From the UHGV virus genome UHGV-0143367: 39,254 bases of DNA, one strand, 5' to 3'. The stretch comes from a virus. Positions 22,023 to 39,254 of the stretch are shown here, in pieces; position 1 is the first letter of the stretch; each line of letters starts with the position of its first letter. The notes beneath the pieces were generated by a model. It ran no database searches. It had not been told where the DNA came from and was given only the letters and a program-made list of their open reading frames with translations. Position numbers and translations under genes: made by a program.

Positions 22023-23084
22023 TTATAATTCTGTAATTTCTGAGACAGTCTGTAAGAAGCGCTCCTCTTCCAGCTCAACGCCAATTGCACGCCGGCCCAG
22101 CTGCATAGCTGCTTTGACCGTTGCCCCCGAACCCATAAAGAAGTCGGCTACCAGGTCGCCAGGGCGAGTACTGGCTGAGATGATATCGATCATCATCTCT
22201 ATCGGCTTTTCACATGGATGTTTACCGGGATAATGCTGGACTGGTGGGTACGTCCAGACGTTCGTATGCGGTACGTCCTTTGTTACCCGGAATGGGCGCC
22301 GCAGGTTTTCGTACTGCTCACGCAAATCACCGTACTGTTTAACCAGTTCTGAATACTGCCCCGATAACTCGTTGTATTCCGCTTCCAGCACGGCGTGGTC
22401 GGACAGTAAGCCAGAGGTTTTCTTCTCTTTCGCTACCCGATTAAACAACGCCTGAAGAGCCTGGTATTGTTTTTCGCTGGGCAGTTGCCATTGGCTTGAG
22501 CTAAACCAGTGGCTGCACATTTGAGTACCCGTCGCCGCGTTAATCTCTGCTGCCGAAATACCCAGGCGCTGCCGGGTAGTTCGGAAGTATTCAATCAACG
22601 GCGCAAAGACCTGGCTTTTCAGTTCCCGGCACTTCGTCGCATACCCGGCATTACCTTTTGCGAATCCCTCAGAGCCATAATGTTCAGCAAACACAATGTG
22701 CTCAGTCGCCGGGAAATACGATCTCAAATCCTCTTTCCGGCAGCCGTTCCAACGACCGCTCGGTTTGGCCCAGATGATATGGTTTAGCACGTTGAACCGC
22801 TCGCCTATCAGCAGTTCTGTGTCAGATGACAGCTTAGGACCGCAGAATACGTACAGAGAGCCAGCCGGCTTCAGCACCCGCCAGAATTCCGCCAAGCACT
22901 CATCGAGCCATGCCAGATAATCAACAGCCGTCGGCCATTGGTTATCCCACGATGCCGCCTTTACTTTGTAGTAGGGCGGGTCGGTGATGATGGCATCGAT
23001 ACTGTTGTCCGGGAGAGTTTTTATGTATGCCAGAGTATCAGCACGCACAAGAACGGCACTGTTTATATTTACAGTGTTTTCCAT
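22023..23084 (-). CDS. DNA methyltransferase, beta-class (N6-adenine or N4-cytosine), orphan
   Basis: 353 aa; DPPY catalytic motif near the N-terminus (AIITDPPYY) and FxGxG AdoMet motif near the C-terminus (FFMGSGAT); no adjacent restriction endonuclease. Confidence 0.8.
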   Translation of the reverse strand: MENTVNINSAVLVRADTLAYIKTLPDNSIDAIITDPPYYKVKAASWDNQWPTAVDYLAWLDECLAEFWRVLKPAGSLYVFCGPKLSSDTELLIGERFNVLNHIIWAKPSGRWNGCRKEDLRSYFPATEHIVFAEHYGSEGFAKGNAGYATKCRELKSQVFAPLIEYFRTTRQRLGISAAEINAATGTQMCSHWFSSSQWQLPSEKQYQALQALFNRVAKEKKTSGLLSDHAVLEAEYNELSGQYSELVKQYGDLREQYENLRRPFRVTKDVPHTNVWTYPPVQHYPGKHPCEKPIEMMIDIISASTRPGDLVADFFMGSGATVKAAMQLGRRAIGVELEEERFLQTVSEITEL

Positions 23085-24034: not shown

Positions 24035-24661
24035 TTATCGTATCGATAGGTTTTTGTATCGGATTGTTATCAATCCATATTTCCCAGAACTGATTGCAGC
24101 GGCGCCAGCGGCCAGGATGTCATCACGGTTTATCGGTAGGCCGGCGGCAAGGATTGGATGCTCCCCGGGGATAAATTCAGCAACGCAGTGGTTTTCGGTC
24201 TGCTCGTTGTCTATTTTCCCTGTCGCTGAATCCACAAAACCTACTCGGCCAACGATAAACCAGATTCGGCTGGCCAGCTGCCAGGGAAACCAGTTTTCGC
24301 CAGGACGGGCACGGAAAAGCCATTGAGAATAAGCACCACGCTCAGCCTCTACGCGCGCCTTACGGAAGAAGTTTCCCATGCCATTGTGCGGAGTGGCCGC
24401 TCGGCTGTCCTCTTTCGAGAATGGCGGGTTGGCATAAAGCGCCGGCAGTACGCCGCGACGTTTTGTTTCAGCCATCCAGTCCAGCTGCAGGCAATTATCT
24501 TCGCGGGTAAAAAACTCCGGCAGAAGATGATTTTCAGTGCTGGCGCATGCATCAACATGGCAAGGGCGCAATAGCTCGAAAAGGCCCGCGGCTATGCGCG
24601 GGTCAGTTCTCCATGTGTCTCGATGCTCAGCGGCGGTGTGGCTGCGATGATCTAAGAGCAT
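24035..24661 (-). CDS. Phage Dam-family DNA N6-adenine methyltransferase
   Basis: 208 aa; NPPF motif (LYANPPFS) preceded by a DACAS segment, arrangement of small phage Dam-family enzymes. Confidence 0.65.
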   Translation of the reverse strand: MLLDHRSHTAAEHRDTWRTDPRIAAGLFELLRPCHVDACASTENHLLPEFFTREDNCLQLDWMAETKRRGVLPALYANPPFSKEDSRAATPHNGMGNFFRKARVEAERGAYSQWLFRARPGENWFPWQLASRIWFIVGRVGFVDSATGKIDNEQTENHCVAEFIPGEHPILAAGLPINRDDILAAGAAAISSGKYGLITIRYKNLSIR

Positions 24662-26395: not shown

Positions 26396-26754
26396 CCAGC
26401 TAAATTCGCGCTGGCTATTCCATTCATGCCTGTACCTAAATGATATTTTTCACGATGCTTTCTGCAGCGAATCCATACAGGAAATGCCACTATCCAGAAG
26501 ATGAACGGCCAGACAACAATTCCTGCCAAAGCAGTGATAAGAACCGCCAGCATGAGCGGTAGCTCCCTGACTTCCGTGCCAGGGAATTCATAACAAACAT
26601 CTGCAAAAGCTGAAAAAACGGCATCGTATCTGTCGGCTGTAAAAGCCATGCAGTCCAGATAGTTAAAATCGTATCCGGTCGCCGCAGCCCATGTAGGGCG
26701 ATCGAGGAAGTGCTTAAGCGTTAGCATCCTGCCCACCACTCGGTTGATATTCAT
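26356..26754 (-). CDS. Small membrane protein (uncertain)
   Basis: 133 aa from internal ATG of ORF 26353-27099; hydrophobic stretch LPLMLAVLITALAGIVVWPFIFWIVAFPVWI; overlaps exonuclease 3' end by ~40 nt. Confidence 0.25.
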
Positions 26755-27676
26755 AAAGGCCCTGGTGGCGCTTATCGCGCGTGTTCCAGTTCTTCTTGGC
26801 GGCGTTCTCCAGCTGCTCGACGTCGCTATCATCAAACACAACATCGGTGGCCTCTTCGCCATGTGCGCCGCACTCATGACAGAAAACAACGGCGCCGGCA
26901 TACAGGCCATCCTCGCCATAGTTGGCTGGGTTCCACAAAGGTTTGTACTGGAGGCCATGCAGGTGGTGAACAAACACAGACGGCGGCCCGTAGCAGAACG
27001 GGCAGGGGGCCAGCCCTGAATCATCACTGTGGTGAAGGTCAGCGCCGCTGTCTGGAAGATGGGGATCGTTGCAGACGCTTTCCAGAACGCGGAGAACACG
27101 CTGGCAGTCGGCCAGCGAACGGTGAGCTTCAGCGCTGACAGTTACACCCTGCTGAACAACGGCCATCGACAGAGACTGTCGGACAAAGTTTCTATCCTTC
27201 ATAGAAAGCGCGCCGTACCACTGGCTGTAAGTCTCTTTCGCATCGATATGGCCAGAATGAATGCGGCTGTACATTTCCAGCATGGCCGCCGGTGCCAGAT
27301 CGTTATAAAGGCCAGTAATCAGGCAGGTCTGAGTAATCAACCGGGCATCAAATTTTGAGTTCCAGGCAAGCCACTTATGGCCGCCAATCGCGGCGACTAC
27401 CGCCGGATAAACTTCCTGCCAGGATGGGGCATCAGCAACCATTTCGTTGGTGATGTTGTTGATAGCGGTCGCAGCTGCGGGGATAGGGCGGGTCGGCTTA
27501 ACAAGCGTATCAAGCAGCACATCACCACGCATATTGATGATCGAGATTTCGATAATCTCATCATTATCTGCCATCCCGGTTGTTTCCGTATCAATAATAC
27601 GAAAATCACTTTTAAGCCATGTAGCCATTAACAGCTGTAAAATAGTCTTATGTGCATTATCCATCATTATTTCCAT
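26714..27676 (-). CDS. DnaQ-like DEDDh 3'-5' exonuclease fused to a C-terminal Lar-like zinc ribbon
   Basis: Exo I motif FRIIDTETTG near N-terminus, H-x4-D (HRSLAD) Exo III-like; C-terminal CPFCYG...CHECGA...AAKKNWNTR resembles the Lar restriction-alleviation family. Confidence 0.65.
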   Translation of the reverse strand: MEIMMDNAHKTILQLLMATWLKSDFRIIDTETTGMADNDEIIEISIINMRGDVLLDTLVKPTRPIPAAATAINNITNEMVADAPSWQEVYPAVVAAIGGHKWLAWNSKFDARLITQTCLITGLYNDLAPAAMLEMYSRIHSGHIDAKETYSQWYGALSMKDRNFVRQSLSMAVVQQGVTVSAEAHRSLADCQRVLRVLESVCNDPHLPDSGADLHHSDDSGLAPCPFCYGPPSVFVHHLHGLQYKPLWNPANYGEDGLYAGAVVFCHECGAHGEEATDVVFDDSDVEQLENAAKKNWNTRDKRHQGLYEYQPSGGQDANA

Positions 27677-31841: not shown

Positions 31842-31868
31842 CTGCGCAACTGCGCAGCGTCTTTTTTT
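31842..31868 (+). terminator. Terminator-like hairpin plus T7 run ending ~10 nt before the repA start codon
   Basis: CTGCGC-aact-GCGCAG stem followed by CGTCTTTTTTT, then GGTGA Shine-Dalgarno and ATG. Confidence 0.4.
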
Positions 31869-31878
31869 GGGTGAAATA

Positions 31879-34800
31879 ATGAATTTAACGGAATATTTTC
31901 AACACAAATTTAACTCTGACCCGTTTTCGCTGCTTGATGCAGCATCAAATGAACTGAGTGATCTCGCGAACGCTGCCGGTATCGACTGGCATAAATGCGC
32001 TGGAGATATTCAGCTTTCTGCCTCTCGCGGTTCCGCTGAAAAATTCACAAAGTATGCCCACCATGGTCCTGCCGTTACTGATCCAAAGCTGAAAGGCAAG
32101 GTTGAGATTTACTCCCGCATGGAGTGTTCTCAGGACGGTATCAAATACCCGTTCATCAACTTTGTCTGTAAAGGTGCTGACGCTGGCGTATGGAGTGGCT
32201 TCCAGTTCCTTATCTCTGAATACCGTCGATACAAAGAACAGAACGGTGGGACCGTGGTCCCACTGTCTGCGCGTGAACTGGAGCAGCGTAAACGTGCTGA
32301 GGCGCGCCGCCATGAACGTGAGCGCCAGCAGGCTATCTCTGTGTTTATGGAGTCGCAGCGCCGCGACGCTGACCTGAACGAATACCTGCAGTTCTCCGCC
32401 GCATTCGCCAAGGCACCGGCAGAAGATGGTTCATGGCCATATGCGGTGAAGAAAGGCATCAGCTCTGTTTTCTCATACTGTAACGTAAGACGCGTAACCC
32501 ATTGGGACCATGGTCCCAATTCTAAAGCGGTTAAAAAACAAACTGTTATGGCGATTCCGCTGTCGCATATTGATGACCGTCGGGAAGACCGTGAATCTCG
32601 CGTTGGGCCGATTGTTGGCTGGCAGCGAATCACCGAGAGAAACGACAAGCTGCAGACCCGCGCTGTAGATTCCGGTGACTTTGCCGGTTCGTGTCACATC
32701 ATCGGCCAGCTGCGCGGCGCAACCAGGATCTGTGTTGTTGAAGGGTTCGCGACTGGTGCCAGCGTGTTCGCTGTAGCGAAAAAACGCTTTGATGCTGTTG
32801 TTGTGGCTGTGTCAGCAAATAACGTTATCAAGGTTGTTGATCAGCTGGTCAGCCTGTACCCAGGCATGGAAATCTGGTGCGCACTGGATAACGACCAGAA
32901 ATCGGCGCGGAATGGAAAAGGCAATACCGGGTTAAGAGTCGGCATCGATGTGATGAAGAAATTCCCGCAGGTCCGCTGCACATTCCCGATTTTCGACAGC
33001 AGCGAAACCGAATTAAGCGACTTTAACGATCTCCACCAGGCGCGCGGCGCCACCGAAACCAACCGCCAGCTGTTTTCAAAACAGAACCGCCTGCAGCTGC
33101 CAGGCAATTCCTTTGATGCTGAAATGCTGTCTCTGGCCGTTGCGCCGGTTTCCGATCGCCGCGCGTTCTCGCGCCAGCTGGTACGCTGCATTGATGCCGG
33201 CATGATGCAATGCCCGTCCAAGTTATCCCCGCAGGAGCTGATCTCGCTGATAAAAATGAAGCTGGACCAGCTCGGCGCCGACAAAGCGCTGCACGGTACC
33301 GTGTATAACCGCGTTAAACGCGCCTTCAAACAGAAATGCGACAAGGCCCAGGCTTTCCGATCATTCAGCGAGCGCGTAACGAACCCGGCAATACGCCCCG
33401 ACCACATCACCTATAAGCGGTTTGAAACACCCCACATGACCAAGGAAGTGCTGGATTACATCAAAGCACTGAGCGGCCCGGTAATCGTCCGTGCCGGCAT
33501 GGGGTCGGGCAAATCCAAACACTTGCTGCGCCCTATGATGCACAGCGCGCAGCGCGGCGTTTCGGTGGCGCACCGCGTTTCGCTGATTGGTGGCCTCTGG
33601 GACATGATGACGCGTGCCGACGATGGCCGTCGCATGAATTGCGACATCCTGCACTACCAGGACCCCGGCTATCAGGAGCTGGCGCCGTATGCCAGCAAAC
33701 TGACAATTTGTATTAACTCTATCGTGAAGGGCTGCTGGCAGCCACTGATGCGCAAACACGATTTCTTTGGCCTGGATGAAGCCACCCAGGGCCTGCGCGC
33801 CACGCTTTCCGGTAAAGCGATGGCGCACCCGGTTGATGTATTCAACCGTCTTATCGACTCTATCGCGTACAGCGATGACCACGCGCTGCTGGTTGATGCA
33901 GACGCCAGCGATATCCTGGTAGACCTCTGCGAACTGGCGCTGGCCAAACGCGAACAAACAGGCCTGTCGACCTGGACACAGATCCACGTCATCGAGCTGC
34001 CGGTTGATGTGAAGTACAAAAAAGCCGATGGCACGCGCGAAGCGCGCCGCGTACTTTACACCGACACCGATCGCATCATGGTTGAAGTACTGAAAGCCGT
34101 GGCTGCCGGCGAAAAATTCCTGCTGGCCACTGACTCAACCAACTTTGCCGAACAGTTGCTACTGCAGCTGCGCGACCGCTGGCCAGAAAAGAAATGGCTT
34201 TACGTCAGCCAGGACACAAAGCCGGATCAGGAAGTTGTGGCGTTTACCGACGCGCCGAACCAGCGCGCTAAACTCTACGATGGCCTTATTTATAGCCCGG
34301 CTATCAGTTCTGGCGTATCGATCGAAGAACGGCACTTCACCCGCCATTTCGGCTGCTTCTGCGGCCAGGTAGTGCCGTCCGACGCCATTCAGATGCTGCG
34401 CCGCGACAGGACCGCCACCGAATTTATGGTCGGCCTGAACAAGCTGCCTGGCGTACGCGAAGAGAACGCCGACAACATCCGCCGTGGGTTCCTGCAGGCA
34501 CTGCTGGAAACTGCCGAGATAAACGAAGAATTTACCGACGCCATCCTGGATGGCGACCGCCTTTCCCTTGGTCTGGCGGACACCACCTATGTCCGCATGA
34601 AATTTAAAGTTGCCGCGATGGAGGCCCAGGCCAGAAACGATTTCGCCAACAACCTGATCTGCATTCTCTACGCCGATGGCTATAACGTCAGCCACTTGGC
34701 CGAAGACTCGCTGGCCAGCGAAACCGGCAAAGAACTGCGTAAGGCATCGAAAGAGCGGGTCTGGGATATGACCGTTCTGCGCCATATGGAAGTGGAAACC

Positions 34801-35868
34801 CCGGACGAAGACGAACGCGACGAACTGATGGGCAAGCGATCACTATCTGAAGATGAGCAGGCGCAACTGGCGCGCTGGGATATCGAAAAAGAGTTGATGC
34901 TGGATGTCAGCCCGGAATCTCTGAAATTCCTGCTCGATGGCGGGAAGAAGAAACTGACGCTGGCCGAACTGATGACGATGGATGAAATGACCGCCGCACG
35001 CATTGACCGTGAGCAGCAGGCTTTCACGTTCACCTACCAATTCCGCAAAGGGCCGCGTAACGAATTTGTAACGATCACCGCGCTCAACCGCGAAGCAGCT
35101 GATGCGCAGTTCGACCGCATGCAGCCAGGAATAACCGGCTACACCGTCCAAAGCCGCCCGGTGATGGAAGTAACCCAGCGTACGTACGCATCGCTGCACC
35201 GTAAGGCCGCCAGGGAGTATTTCTCCACCTGCGGTATTAACCCAGATACCGGCGCCGGTGAAGCCAGCCAGGAAGGTATGGCGGAAGCTATGGCCAAACT
35301 TATGGACCCAACCACCGCGGATCGTTTCAACAACGTCCTGCGGTTCGGTGGCTATATAAACCCTAAAGGCCGCCAGAAACGCCCCGAGACGGTTTTCAAA
35401 CAGATCTGTGAGGCATTCGGTTACGCGACTCAGAAACGCCGCCTACCGCGTTCACAGGGCCTCGGTTACGTGTGGTCAATCGTCCCCGAATCCTGGGAAT
35501 TCATTCACGGAATTCTGGCGCGTCGCGCCGAGGCATCACTGTCGTTTGTCCAGATGAAACTGGATGTGGGGGCACCGGAAGAACCGGATCTCGATTGCCG
35601 ATCAAATATAGATGTAAGATCCCAATCTGGATCTGCTGAGACGGCATTTATTGAGGCAACGCTGACGACGATTGAAGAGGCTATCGCTGCGATGCCGGTG
35701 CCATTTGCATGGCTGAGAACCGCACTGACGCCGGAAGAACTGGCACAACTCGCGACTATGCCGCCACGGTTGATACAGGCGACGGTTGCCGGGCTGTTTA
35801 TGGCTGACAATATGTGGCAACTATCAGATGGCCAATACAACGAACTGAAGCGGTTGCAGGCGGTTTAA
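31879..35868 (+). CDS. repA: Replication protein RepA (primase-helicase) of N15-type linear plasmid-prophage
   Basis: About 1329 aa from ATG 31879 (ORF track begins at upstream TTG); Walker A GMGSGKSK; size and position next to cB and telN as in N15. Confidence 0.85.
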   Translation: MNLTEYFQHKFNSDPFSLLDAASNELSDLANAAGIDWHKCAGDIQLSASRGSAEKFTKYAHHGPAVTDPKLKGKVEIYSRMECSQDGIKYPFINFVCKGADAGVWSGFQFLISEYRRYKEQNGGTVVPLSARELEQRKRAEARRHERERQQAISVFMESQRRDADLNEYLQFSAAFAKAPAEDGSWPYAVKKGISSVFSYCNVRRVTHWDHGPNSKAVKKQTVMAIPLSHIDDRREDRESRVGPIVGWQRITERNDKLQTRAVDSGDFAGSCHIIGQLRGATRICVVEGFATGASVFAVAKKRFDAVVVAVSANNVIKVVDQLVSLYPGMEIWCALDNDQKSARNGKGNTGLRVGIDVMKKFPQVRCTFPIFDSSETELSDFNDLHQARGATETNRQLFSKQNRLQLPGNSFDAEMLSLAVAPVSDRRAFSRQLVRCIDAGMMQCPSKLSPQELISLIKMKLDQLGADKALHGTVYNRVKRAFKQKCDKAQAFRSFSERVTNPAIRPDHITYKRFETPHMTKEVLDYIKALSGPVIVRAGMGSGKSKHLLRPMMHSAQRGVSVAHRVSLIGGLWDMMTRADDGRRMNCDILHYQDPGYQELAPYASKLTICINSIVKGCWQPLMRKHDFFGLDEATQGLRATLSGKAMAHPVDVFNRLIDSIAYSDDHALLVDADASDILVDLCELALAKREQTGLSTWTQIHVIELPVDVKYKKADGTREARRVLYTDTDRIMVEVLKAVAAGEKFLLATDSTNFAEQLLLQLRDRWPEKKWLYVSQDTKPDQEVVAFTDAPNQRAKLYDGLIYSPAISSGVSIEERHFTRHFGCFCGQVVPSDAIQMLRRDRTATEFMVGLNKLPGVREENADNIRRGFLQALLETAEINEEFTDAILDGDRLSLGLADTTYVRMKFKVAAMEAQARNDFANNLICILYADGYNVSHLAEDSLASETGKELRKASKERVWDMTVLRHMEVETPDEDERDELMGKRSLSEDEQAQLARWDIEKELMLDVSPESLKFLLDGGKKKLTLAELMTMDEMTAARIDREQQAFTFTYQFRKGPRNEFVTITALNREAADAQFDRMQPGITGYTVQSRPVMEVTQRTYASLHRKAAREYFSTCGINPDTGAGEASQEGMAEAMAKLMDPTTADRFNNVLRFGGYINPKGRQKRPETVFKQICEAFGYATQKRRLPRSQGLGYVWSIVPESWEFIHGILARRAEASLSFVQMKLDVGAPEEPDLDCRSNIDVRSQSGSAETAFIEATLTTIEEAIAAMPVPFAWLRTALTPEELAQLATMPPRLIQATVAGLFMADNMWQLSDGQYNELKRLQAV
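32247..32262. repeat. SopB-box-like inverted repeat TGGGACC-GT-GGTCCCA inside repA
   Basis: Direct match; encodes ...GGTVVP... in the RepA frame. Confidence 0.65.
32501..32520. repeat. SopB-box-like palindrome ATTGGGACCATGGTCCCAAT inside repA
   Basis: Perfect 20-bp palindrome; encodes ...HWDHGPN... in the RepA frame. Confidence 0.7.
35585..35640. other. Candidate replication-origin element inside the 3' end of repA: four GATC sites in 47 bp with inverted repeat AGATCC...GGATCT
   Basis: GATC at 35587, 35600, 35618, 35630; the N15 ori maps within the 3' part of repA (recalled, not verified here). Confidence 0.3.
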
Positions 35869-35878
35869 GGGGATATCT

Positions 35879-36220
35879 ATGTCGACTACTGATTTTTTGA
35901 AAACACTGGATCGTGTCCAGCTGCAGTTCTGCCGGAATAAGTGCGACGAAATGCTTCGTGCTATCCAGGAAGAACAAAAGAAGGTCGCCTGGGCGGTAAC
36001 TGATGGCTCGGTCAACTACGGCTGGTACCGAACTGAGGACTACCTTAAAGCTGTCGAATGCCTGGTACGCGAAGCTGAGAAGCGCTGGAACGAAGAGACT
36101 GAAGAAGACAAAGGCAACCCGCAAACTCGCGGCTGGCTGAACTTTTCTATTCAGGGCCAGCGCCTGCCGGCGTCCGAATACGAAGCGCTGTTTGCTGATG
36201 GCCAGTGGGGGTTAACGTGA
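35879..36220 (+). CDS. Hypothetical protein, first gene of operon downstream of repA
   Basis: 113 aa; strong Shine-Dalgarno (AAGGGGA) 10 nt after the repA stop. Confidence 0.45.
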   Translation: MSTTDFLKTLDRVQLQFCRNKCDEMLRAIQEEQKKVAWAVTDGSVNYGWYRTEDYLKAVECLVREAEKRWNEETEEDKGNPQTRGWLNFSIQGQRLPASEYEALFADGQWGLT

Positions 36221-37140: not shown

Positions 37141-39042
37141 TTAATTTTCTGGGAAATACGCAAACCATGCTGATTTCATGGCACTGCTGATACTATCCGC
37201 CGCGCCACTCCAGGCGTATAGCTGCCCCTTGTATTTGAAACGGATCGTCCAGCTGCCGTCGTCACTACGAACGGGCGCGGAGAAGCGTGGACGAGTGTCT
37301 ATTGGTACTGGTTTTTCCTCTTCGGCCTCGGCGGTCACGCCATCTTCTCGGCCTTCCTCTTCAGCTTCCAGCGCCTGGGTATCGTCACTGGTTTCCTCTC
37401 TATCGGCACCGCTATCGCCAGCGAGGTCGTCTTCACCATCCAGTTCGTCAGAGGTTATGACAATAGAGGGCGCATCTGCATTGTTAATCGTACTGCTCAT
37501 AGCCAGCGCCTCAGCAACAAAATCAAGATACCGGCGAACTAGCGTCGGGTTAAATCCAGCATCTCGTAATATTTTTGTGTTGATGACGATATCAGCTGAT
37601 TCCTCCACCAGCCGCTTTGTTGTTTCATGAATACGGATACCGGCATCGCCCCTGGCGAAGCCAGGCATTTGGTCGTCAAGCGCTTGTAGAGCAGCGAGGC
37701 GCTTATTTTCAATCCCCGTTTCCGGGCGCCAGCTGCGTGAGAAATTATGCAGTTTGAACTGTTTGTAGTGCAGCTGCGTATTTTCGTCGTCATGCCCCAG
37801 GATTTCAGAGAAAAAGACGTCCTCATCAACGTTTTTCCAGCGCGGGTCGTAGCGGAAAAACGCCTCATAGGTGATACGCGCATAAATTGCGCGCGTGTCT
37901 TTGAATGTTCGGCGGTCGTCGCCGAAGAACAGCTTCGCGTGCTGGTTAAATGTGTTACCAAGAATTGATGCGATGCGCACATTTGCGGCCCGGTAGCTAT
38001 CATCGTTCAACAGAGATCTGATTTCGTCAAAATCAGCCGCTGCGGGGCAACTTCTCAGTTCATTTAAACGTTGAACGAACAGGGCCGGGTCGCACAGCAC
38101 ATAAATTTTACGCCCCTTATCCTCGCCGGTTCGTTTTTTGGCCTGCCCGTAGAAAATAACTTCATACTTGCCGGTAACCTCAAATTCTCCCTGAACCATC
38201 ACCTCAATCAATCGACGCCCGGATACGGCTGCTAGCGCGAACGCCAGCGGCGCCATATCCTTACGTTGCGTGATAAGTGATGGTTCAAACGCCTTGTAGA
38301 TCTGCTCGGTCACAGCCTGCATATATTTGGGGTAGTCCAAGAGTACAGTTGACCGTTTCTTCTCGCTGAGCACCTCGCCCCAGCGCTGCTGTATCGATGA
38401 GCGTTCTGCCGGACTCAACTGCAGGTGATACAGAATTTCATGGTTGATTTTCAGGCCGTTCAGATCATCCAACAAGCGGGTTCCCTGTTGGAACGCGGCA
38501 TGCATTTCGGTTTCGACCGACTTCCAGTCTTGGCTGGTCAACGCGTTAAGATAGATGCTCCAGGCAGGGTATTTTTTTGCCAGGCGCGTCAATTTTTTCT
38601 CCGCAGCCGGTCCGAACTTCATACCCGAAAGCACCTCCGCCAGCGGCATAATTTCCTTCAGTTGGCCCTGTAGATTGCCGTATGCCTGACGAATATCTGC
38701 CGCAGGCATAGATTGCCACGCCTGTAATTCAGCACTGTAGGCGGGGTATTTTGCCGCTAACTTTTCAATGCTGCTGGTGAAGTGATGGTGCAAACGGTCG
38801 TCGAACTGTTTACGAATACGGGTCATATACGCGTTATAAGTATTGGCTGTAATGCGTTTCTTCAAACCGTTACCACGGAACTTCCTTTTATCTAAAAATA
38901 GCGCGTTTTTAACACGTGTAGCCGCAGCCTTATATTTTCGTGTCTTATCTCCCTGTGGGATGTCGGACGCTTCGATAGCGTCAACGTCCGCCACCAAATC
39001 AGAGATGATTTTACCAATTCCGCCATCGCCTAGCTTCGCCAT
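37141..39042 (-). CDS. telN: Protelomerase (telomere resolvase) TelN
   Basis: 633 aa; long blocks match N15 TelN as recalled (QGDKT, NALF.DKRKFRG.GL.KRITAN, HLQLSPAER.SIQQRW, MAPLAFALAAVSGRR, WKNVDEDVFF.EILGHDDENTQLHYKQFKL.NFSR.WRPE, MPGFARGDAG); acidic C-terminal tail; GAGGGGGG Shine-Dalgarno. Confidence 0.95.
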   Translation of the reverse strand: MAKLGDGGIGKIISDLVADVDAIEASDIPQGDKTRKYKAAATRVKNALFLDKRKFRGNGLKKRITANTYNAYMTRIRKQFDDRLHHHFTSSIEKLAAKYPAYSAELQAWQSMPAADIRQAYGNLQGQLKEIMPLAEVLSGMKFGPAAEKKLTRLAKKYPAWSIYLNALTSQDWKSVETEMHAAFQQGTRLLDDLNGLKINHEILYHLQLSPAERSSIQQRWGEVLSEKKRSTVLLDYPKYMQAVTEQIYKAFEPSLITQRKDMAPLAFALAAVSGRRLIEVMVQGEFEVTGKYEVIFYGQAKKRTGEDKGRKIYVLCDPALFVQRLNELRSCPAAADFDEIRSLLNDDSYRAANVRIASILGNTFNQHAKLFFGDDRRTFKDTRAIYARITYEAFFRYDPRWKNVDEDVFFSEILGHDDENTQLHYKQFKLHNFSRSWRPETGIENKRLAALQALDDQMPGFARGDAGIRIHETTKRLVEESADIVINTKILRDAGFNPTLVRRYLDFVAEALAMSSTINNADAPSIVITSDELDGEDDLAGDSGADREETSDDTQALEAEEEGREDGVTAEAEEEKPVPIDTRPRFSAPVRSDDGSWTIRFKYKGQLYAWSGAADSISSAMKSAWFAYFPEN

Positions 39043-39054
39043 GTGCCCCCCTCA

Positions 39055-39176
39055 TTATCGTAACAATATGCGCAAACATTACACCTAAAAGGCTAAAAAT
39101 CAACCTATAAATCATCGTAACATAATTCTAATTATGTGTAAATAATTATCGTAACTGTTAATTAATTTATCGTAAC
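39055..39176 (+). repeat. Four direct copies of ATCGTAAC (mostly TTATCGTAAC) between the telN start and the telomere palindrome; inverted copy GTTACG at 39193-39198
   Basis: Exact 8-mer at 39057, 39114, 39148, 39169 in an AT-rich stretch; candidate TelN occupancy/regulatory repeats. Confidence 0.55.
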
Positions 39177-39200
39177 ATCATTTGCATATACTGTTACGTT

Positions 39201-39254
39201 AAACGACACACATTATTAAATATACGCGCGTATATTTAATAATGTGTGTCGTTT
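39201..39254. repeat. Telomere resolution site (telRL-like): perfect 54-bp palindrome centred on TATACGCGCGTATA
   Basis: AAACGACACACATTATTAAATATACGC|GCGTATATTTAATAATGTGTGTCGTTT is its own reverse complement; central (CG)3 in TATA context resembles the N15 telO core; located ~160 bp upstream of the telN start. Confidence 0.85.

Follow-up and report, generated by a model that had tools for sequence, protein, structure and literature searches.

A conserved 47-bp GATC-framed dyad in the 3' part of repA as a probable origin core of an N15/PY54-like linear plasmid prophage

The repA locus and its GATC element

The virus genome UHGV-0143367 was analyzed as one stretch of 39,254 nucleotides (nt), hereafter the window, whose repA gene contains, near its 3' end, four GATC tetranucleotides within 47 base pairs (bp). 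These sites frame a dyad-symmetric element, which is probably the core of the replication origin of a linear plasmid prophage. The gene, the element and its parts are listed below, with no strand being assigned to the element, and the counts refer to the PY54-type set, i.e., the window and 11 distinct relatives retrieved by protein similarity, with 67-95% pairwise nucleotide identity, which were compared through a codon alignment of the repA 3' 2 kilobases (kb).

31879..35868, + strand: repA, primase-helicase-type replication initiator (PHROG 4913, Toprim, CyRepA1, PY54 identity)
35587..35633: 47-bp dyad-symmetric element, proposed origin core, with a layout that is invariant in the 12 PY54-type sequences
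35587..35590: GATC site 1 (outer left), codons GAT CTN (Asp-Leu), 12/12, always GAT and never GAC
35591..35599: left arm TCGATTGCC, with the core GATTG (35593-35597), which pairs with CAATC of the right arm
35600..35603: GATC site 2 (inner left), codons xGA TCN (Arg/Gly-Ser), 12/12, with CGA/GGA/AGA swaps that keep GA
35604..35617: AT-rich spacer AAATATAGATGTAA, 14 nt, proposed melting site, with the invariant TATAG (35607-35611)
35618..35621: GATC site 3 (inner right), codons (A/G)GA TCN, 12/12 in the PY54-type set
35622..35629: right arm CCAATCTG, with the core CAATC (35623-35627), the reverse complement of the left-arm core
35630..35633: GATC site 4 (outer right), codons GGA TCN, 12/12

The open reading frame (ORF) of repA spans 4 kb (31867-35868, + strand) from a program-called TTG start at 31867, and the ATG at 31879 is the likelier start, because the match to the family profile begins at residue 5. 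The product matches PHROG 4913 ('replication') over its full length, with 1857 bits, and includes a Toprim primase domain (residues 288-395) and the NCBIfam domain CyRepA1 (residues 539-1085).

The element is built, in order, of a GATC, an arm, a second GATC, the 14-nt AT-rich spacer, a third GATC, an arm and a final GATC, with the dyad centre at 35610/35611, and a distance of 235-281 nt separates it from the repA stop. The four GATC sites start at 35587, 35600, 35618 and 35630, exactly where the original prediction had placed them, with the first of them found 281 nt before the end of repA. That prediction had also described an inverted repeat, AGATCC/GGATCT, which is present (35617-35622 / 35629-35634) but incidental, given that two palindromic GATC sites by themselves supply four of its six pairs, and the relatives do not retain the two flanking ones.

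The real conserved dyad is larger than this 6-bp repeat. When G-T is accepted as a pair, dyad pairing is found in 94.8% of the cells across the 12 PY54-type sequences, vs. 15-55% with slid partner columns. Two adjacent dyad pairs have changed on both sides, in a compensated manner. A single-strand hairpin was rejected as the conserved feature, given its modest z-scores and the fact that the 6-bp repeat is explained by the two palindromic GATC sites. No other 20-mer of the 4-kb repA is as unstable as that at 35601-35620 (-19.9 kcal/mol vs. a mean of -28.3 +/- 2.7). The left arm TCGATTGCC resembles the repeat CGATTTGGATC that is annotated for N15 in the record U63085.1, and repeat units of 11-12 bp with GATC at their ends are found both in N15 (CGATTTGGATC, CGAAGTGGATC) and in the window (GATTGCCGATC, GATTGGGATC).

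Judged from the window alone, the cluster is at most marginally unusual. No other four GATC sites of the window lie as close together, with the runner-up spanning 211 bp, and the probability of an equally tight cluster anywhere in the window is P = 0.06 when the sites are placed uniformly and P = 0.04 in an order-3 Markov model. The density of four GATC per 47 bp in the cluster compares with one per 289 bp in the window, which holds 136 GATC in all, vs. 170 +/- 13 expected, with at least as many as 136 in each of the 100 shuffles. The genomes of PY54 and N15 are also poor in GATC (127 and 131 found vs. ~176 and ~181 expected from base composition), and since the tetranucleotide is under-represented throughout the window, the cluster appears to have been kept against a general avoidance of GATC.

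Conservation among the PY54-type relatives

The comparison of the PY54-type sequences sets the four sites apart from all the other GATC of this region. They are the only ones among the 38 GATC columns of the repA 3' 2 kb to be kept in 12/12 sequences, and the nine other GATC sites that the window has here are kept in anywhere from none to nine of the 11 relatives. The third codon position is invariant in 8 of the 16 codons of 35584-35631, vs. 6.5% of the 663 codons overall (P = 2.5e-6 for a single codon window, ~2e-3 when corrected for 659 such windows), and third-position entropy reaches its minimum for the gene at this point (z = -4.3), in contrast to amino-acid entropy, which exceeds the average of the gene. 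Because third positions are invariant where amino-acid variability exceeds that of the gene, the alignment indicates that selection at the element acts on DNA and not on protein. The exact PY54-type motif is confined to these 12 loci among 2.9 million viral contigs.

A constraint on the RepA protein, in the form of the motif D-L-x-x-(R/G)-S-x-I-D-x-(R/G)-S-Q-x-G-S, an overlapping gene or mere chance might also be thought to account for this conservation, given that some residues are conserved, such as the Asp at 35587, the Ile at 35608, the Gln at 35623 and the Ser residues. Any of these accounts is very improbable, however, as it is the synonymous third positions that are invariant. For example, the codon at 35605 specifies five different amino acids with one invariant third-position T, which forms part of the invariant TATAG, and Gly and Arg alternate as CGA, GGA and AGA, so that the residue changes and the xGA stays. 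The raised amino-acid entropy and the recurrence of the same sites in two clades at ~40% amino-acid identity, in different codon phases, also speak against a protein constraint. An overlapping gene was rejected, since no alternative-frame ORF is maintained in the relatives.

A structure model of the C-terminal 399 residues of RepA (window positions 34669-35865), with a mean predicted local distance difference test (pLDDT) score of 53.7, puts the residues encoded by the element in coil, with a pLDDT < 50, between helices. With weak support from this model, the part of repA that holds the element appears to encode a variable, probably unstructured, interdomain linker. The model is of low confidence because the protein database search with these 399 residues returned only five partial proteins, which belong to Salmonella and E. 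coli records, and did not retrieve the full-length RepA of PY54 or N15. Searches at the DNA level found dozens of relatives, and the protein index seems to miss the RepA family.

Synonymous variation is also very low in the last positions of repA, 35833-35868 (z about -4), just before the next ORF (ATG at 35879). This stretch, whose value is influenced in part by a gap in one of the aligned relatives, may correspond to a ribosome-binding site or to translational coupling.

The element in N15-type and distant relatives

The homologous position is occupied in PY54, N15, phiKO2 and ~50 further repA genes of telomere phages, and in two independent clades the element is the strongest signal of synonymous-site conservation in the 3' half of repA. 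N15, phiKO2 and their Klebsiella and Escherichia relatives have ~38-40% amino-acid identity in this part of RepA, and their repA genes show this arrangement equally far from the stop. An N15-type set of 40 unique loci was retrieved by protein similarity alone, and the GATC found at -302, -290 and -259 from the stop, which are kept in 39, 37 and 39 of these loci, respectively, are better retained than any other GATC column of the 3' 2 kb, with the homologue of site 4 kept as CGATCC in 39/40. The same region is the minimum of third-position entropy in the N15-type clade (z = -4.1), where amino-acid entropy is once more above the gene average.

The GATC sites, the TATAG, the 14-nt AT-rich spacer and the 43-bp outer spacing are all shared, at the aligned position, with the element of PY54, N15 and phiKO2, and the alignment identifies the elements of the window, PY54 and N15 as homologues. 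The outer GATC sites lie 43 bp apart in every listed core with a 43-spaced outer pair, in both clades, and the spacer of the inner pair has 14 nt in all the four-site members of both. Between the clades, the two inner GATC are displaced by 1 nt, so that site 2, which reads CGA TCA in the window, is found as GAT CTA in N15, in another codon phase. The arm cores vary by lineage, with GATTG/CAATC in the window, AACTTG/CAAGTT in the PY54 clade, and CG(G/A)TTT(A/G) and its complement in the Klebsiella clade. In a more distant relative, with 31% amino-acid identity, an 81-nt stretch at -313 to -236 from the stop contains six GATC.

Similar results are obtained from complete genomes, given that the four homologous sites of PY54 (AJ564013, 27863-27909) and the three of N15 (AF064539, 30145-30191) are the tightest four-site and three-site GATC clusters of the respective genomes. 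The early N15 record U63085.1 annotates three 11-bp repeat regions that are exactly the three GATC-bearing units of N15, to which it assigns no function, and the repeats had thus been noticed before by its depositors.

The main rival reading of these patterns is that the element is the core of an origin in which GATC is merely a conserved part of the sequence recognized by RepA, i.e., the core of an iteron, with no role for methylation or SeqA. The GATC sites do sit at the ends of the 11-12-bp repeat units, and a conserved DNA-binding domain of RepA could read the GATC, with the variable arms giving replicon specificity. This reading is unlikely, however, given that the second and third sites remain GATC despite the 1-nt shift, that the number of sites varies from two to six, and that GATC is otherwise avoided in these genomes; the shifts and the varying number of sites therefore look more like selection on the tetranucleotide than like a fixed protein contact. 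Dam and SeqA, moreover, are GATC readers that are present in the enterobacterial hosts.

A candidate origin and its possible control by methylation

The 47-bp element is interpreted here, with a probability of about 0.7, as the core of the RepA-dependent origin of a linear plasmid prophage, and it is likely that it forms at least part of that origin. This function is deduced from homology and anatomy. In PY54, a 212-bp origin in the 3' portion of repA was reportedly described by Ziegelin et al. in 2005, and structure elements conserved in PY54, N15 and phiKO2 are said to be present there. The proposal of a candidate origin in the 3' end of repA thus finds support in the family-wide position, in the conservation at the DNA level and in the origin-like anatomy. 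That proposal refers to N15, whose origin is reported to lie in the 3' part of repA; the phage of the window is a new relative of PY54 and N15 and not N15 itself. The replication of N15 is initiated bidirectionally by RepA within repA (PMC2847241). The phage sequence records examined carry no rep_origin feature, and neither origin coordinates nor statements on Dam or GATC at these origins were found in the literature searched, which did not include the primary mapping papers.

In the mechanism proposed here, RepA, as a primase-helicase fusion, would bind the two inverted GATC-bounded arms symmetrically, and the 14-nt AT-rich spacer between them would melt. RepA would then be loaded in both directions and prime synthesis, which would lead to bidirectional replication towards the hairpin telomere, ~3.6 kb away. 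The four GATC sites would couple the origin to adenine methylation, given that, after firing, the host SeqA might bind the hemimethylated sites and delay re-initiation. Alternatively, full methylation might be needed for the binding of RepA or for melting. During lytic growth, the Dam-family enzyme of the phage could shorten the hemimethylated period. No match to the DnaA box TTATCCACA was found at up to one mismatch within 10 kb, an absence which is expected if RepA is a self-priming initiator.

The conservation of DNA does not in itself specify a function, and the element could be another type of cis-acting site, such as a handcuffing or incompatibility site for RepA, a Dam-sensitive internal promoter for the small genes downstream or a regulatory hairpin in RNA or DNA, especially as a 6-bp single-strand hairpin can form (z of -1.7 to -2.0). 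Such a role is quite improbable, given that neither strand has a sigma-70-like promoter overlapping the element, that no match to a known RNA family was found in Rfam, and that the neighbouring hairpin is not conserved. The invariance lies instead in the tetranucleotides and in a DNA-type dyad centred on an AT-rich spacer, and the position matches the region of the origins reported for the family. A terminator at the element was rejected because the terminator-like hairpin at 35634-35646 is not conserved in the relatives, as was a centromere role, given that the sopC-like palindromes described below are a different motif, located elsewhere.

Two genes of the window bear on the origin core proposed here through the question of methylation.

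24035..24661, - strand: Dam-family N6-adenine methyltransferase of the phage, possible writer of the GATC mark (PF05869, E = 7e-20)
22023-23084, - strand: second N6/N4 methyltransferase (PF01555, N6_N4_Mtase)

The first of these bears out the claim that the phage encodes its own Dam-family methyltransferase, and its product scores 65.8 bits on TIGR01712, under the cut-off of 97. The PY54 record also annotates two adenine methylases. Control of the origin by methylation is plausible, because it is the GATC itself that is conserved, and the conservation of the tetranucleotide as such suggests that a reader of GATC is probably involved; that methylation or SeqA matters at the element is put here at about even odds. 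The hemimethylated GATC that SeqA requires are paired and lie on roughly one side of the helix (PMC2691817). The four sites have offsets of 0, 13, 31 and 43 bp, and, at 10.5 bp per turn, sites 1, 3 and 4 are within ~35 degrees of one face, with site 2 being ~86 degrees off. No link between N15-type phages and Dam or SeqA was found in the literature searched. A further possibility, which is speculative and rather doubtful, is that the dyad is a methylation-gated loading site for RepA, with sequestration by SeqA lowering the copy number in the plasmid state, the Dam-family enzyme remethylating the sites for repeated lytic firing, the inner arms setting replicon specificity, and the GATC frame acting as a family-wide switch.

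Several observations weigh against the interpretation of the element as an origin core. The covariation of the arms amounts to a few evolutionary events and not many. Site 3, which is present in the Klebsiella-type clade, is lost in N15 and phiKO2, together with most of the right arm, so that neither a complete dyad nor all four sites can be strictly necessary, and the Vibrio phage VP882, with a distant RepA, has a single GATC at this place. The GC skew, which had been proposed as a check, does not mark the site, given that its cumulative minimum lies near 30-31 kb, where the direction of transcription switches; as it is confounded by transcription direction, however, it is uninformative.

The phage and its replicon

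The phage of the window is, by the sequence comparisons, a new N15/PY54-like telomere phage, i.e., a linear plasmid prophage, distinct from N15 itself. The nearest deposited phage is the Yersinia phage PY54, with ~71% nucleotide identity across 58% of repA; the structural genes are ~74% similar to those of phiKO2-type Klebsiella phages, and the C-terminus of RepA has ~39% amino-acid identity with that of N15. A megablast search in near mode found no match in the plasmid collection or in the complete E. coli genomes. The features of the replicon beyond repA are as follows.

37141-39042, - strand: protelomerase
39201-39254 (window end): perfect 27+27-nt palindrome, with its centre at 39227/39228 (...TATACGC|GCGTATA...), upstream of the protelomerase gene
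695, 4671, 11202, 16901, 19842, 23319, 29046, 32247, 32503 and 37115: copies of the TGGGACC-NN-GGTCCCA palindrome

Three small ORFs lie downstream of repA, as does the protelomerase gene, and genes for a CI-like repressor and a Q antiterminator lie upstream. The hallmarks of a telomere-phage replicon are all present, i.e., a RepA primase-helicase, a protelomerase and a nearby telomere palindrome. Five copies of a TTATCGTAAC-like repeat (39055-39202) precede the terminal palindrome, which is probably, together with these repeats, a telRL or a hairpin telomere with accessory sites, and the contig sequence may continue for 27 nt around the hairpin.

Some related viral contigs, i.e., IMGVR_UViG_3300012078_000004 (L013/L014, 83162 bp) and IMGVR_UViG_2791355284_000001 (92470 bp), contain the repA region twice, in inverted orientation and symmetrically about the contig midpoint. 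They represent head-to-head dimers, which would be expected either when an assembly runs through a hairpin telomere or from intermediates of replication.

The TGGGACC-NN-GGTCCCA palindrome is found in 10 dispersed copies, eight of them perfect, vs. 0.11 expected by chance, with two of the copies inside repA. These copies look like the sopC sites of F and the SopB centromere sites of the N15 type. N15 has four centromere sites, and the phage of the window may therefore have an unusually large dispersed centromere set.

One further ORF, at 26714-27676 (- strand), fuses an RNase_T-type exonuclease domain with a Lar restriction-alleviation domain.

Comparison with known systems

The closest comparison is with the origins inside repA in PY54, N15 and phiKO2, where the element lies in the same gene, ~260-330 nt before the stop, with homologous GATC sites, an AT-rich ATATAGAT core and flanking arms. 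It differs from them in its arms, GATTG/CAATC, which are unlike those of PY54 and of the Klebsiella type, and, in the case of N15, in having more than the three GATC sites and decayed right arm of that phage. That an origin exists in the 3' part of repA was already known, and the GATC frame, with arms that differ by lineage, refines this picture in a testable way without being surprising. The analysis narrows the likely origin of this N15/PY54-like linear plasmid prophage, which had not been described before, to 47 bp, and, across the enterobacterial telomere phages, the element is defined by GATC sites that frame an AT-rich spacer, with the arms being specific to the lineage. Testable predictions follow on the control of copy number by Dam and SeqA and on the determinant of replicon specificity, which are relevant to the linear cloning vectors based on N15 and to the switch of phage-plasmids between plasmid and lytic replication.

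The element might function in the manner of an origin controlled by methylation, for which the oriC of E. coli, with its sequestration by Dam and SeqA, provides one model. The oriC has 11 GATC in ~245 bp, and the two share a density of GATC far above the background at the melting site, which in the window is a proposed one, where the sites are spaced by 12-13, 30-31 and 43 bp and sites 1, 3 and 4 are roughly on one face of the helix. The element differs in having no DnaA boxes, a phage-encoded initiator and four sites in 47 bp. A second model is the oriR of P1, which has GATC-containing heptamer repeats, is methylation-dependent and holds a GATC cluster in an AT-rich core; P1 also has its own Dam, and its origin, with RepA iterons and host DnaA boxes, lies outside the initiator gene. 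As an origin of a plasmid prophage, with a GATC cluster in an AT-rich core and a Dam of the phage, P1 is similar to the window, where, on the other hand, the element lies inside the initiator gene and is dyad-symmetric. The absence of DnaA boxes argues that the element is not a DnaA-dependent origin of the oriC or P1 type.

In the case of chromosome II of Vibrio cholerae, the 11- and 12-mers of RctB each contain a GATC, and the binding of the initiator needs full methylation (PMC2865523). This origin resembles the element in having GATC in each repeat unit, and it is a precedent for the methylation-gated loading of an initiator, although the initiator is unrelated, the repeats are in tandem and not in a dyad, and the origin is intergenic.

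Finally, origins may be embedded in the coding sequence of their own initiator. For example, the ori of phage lambda lies in gene O, with four iterons and no GATC cluster. The repABC plasmids have their oriV inside repC, next to or within an A+T-rich stretch (PMC3155836). In both cases, as is proposed for the element, the origin lies within the coding sequence of the initiator and constrains its synonymous sites, with initiators and repeats that belong to other families and types.

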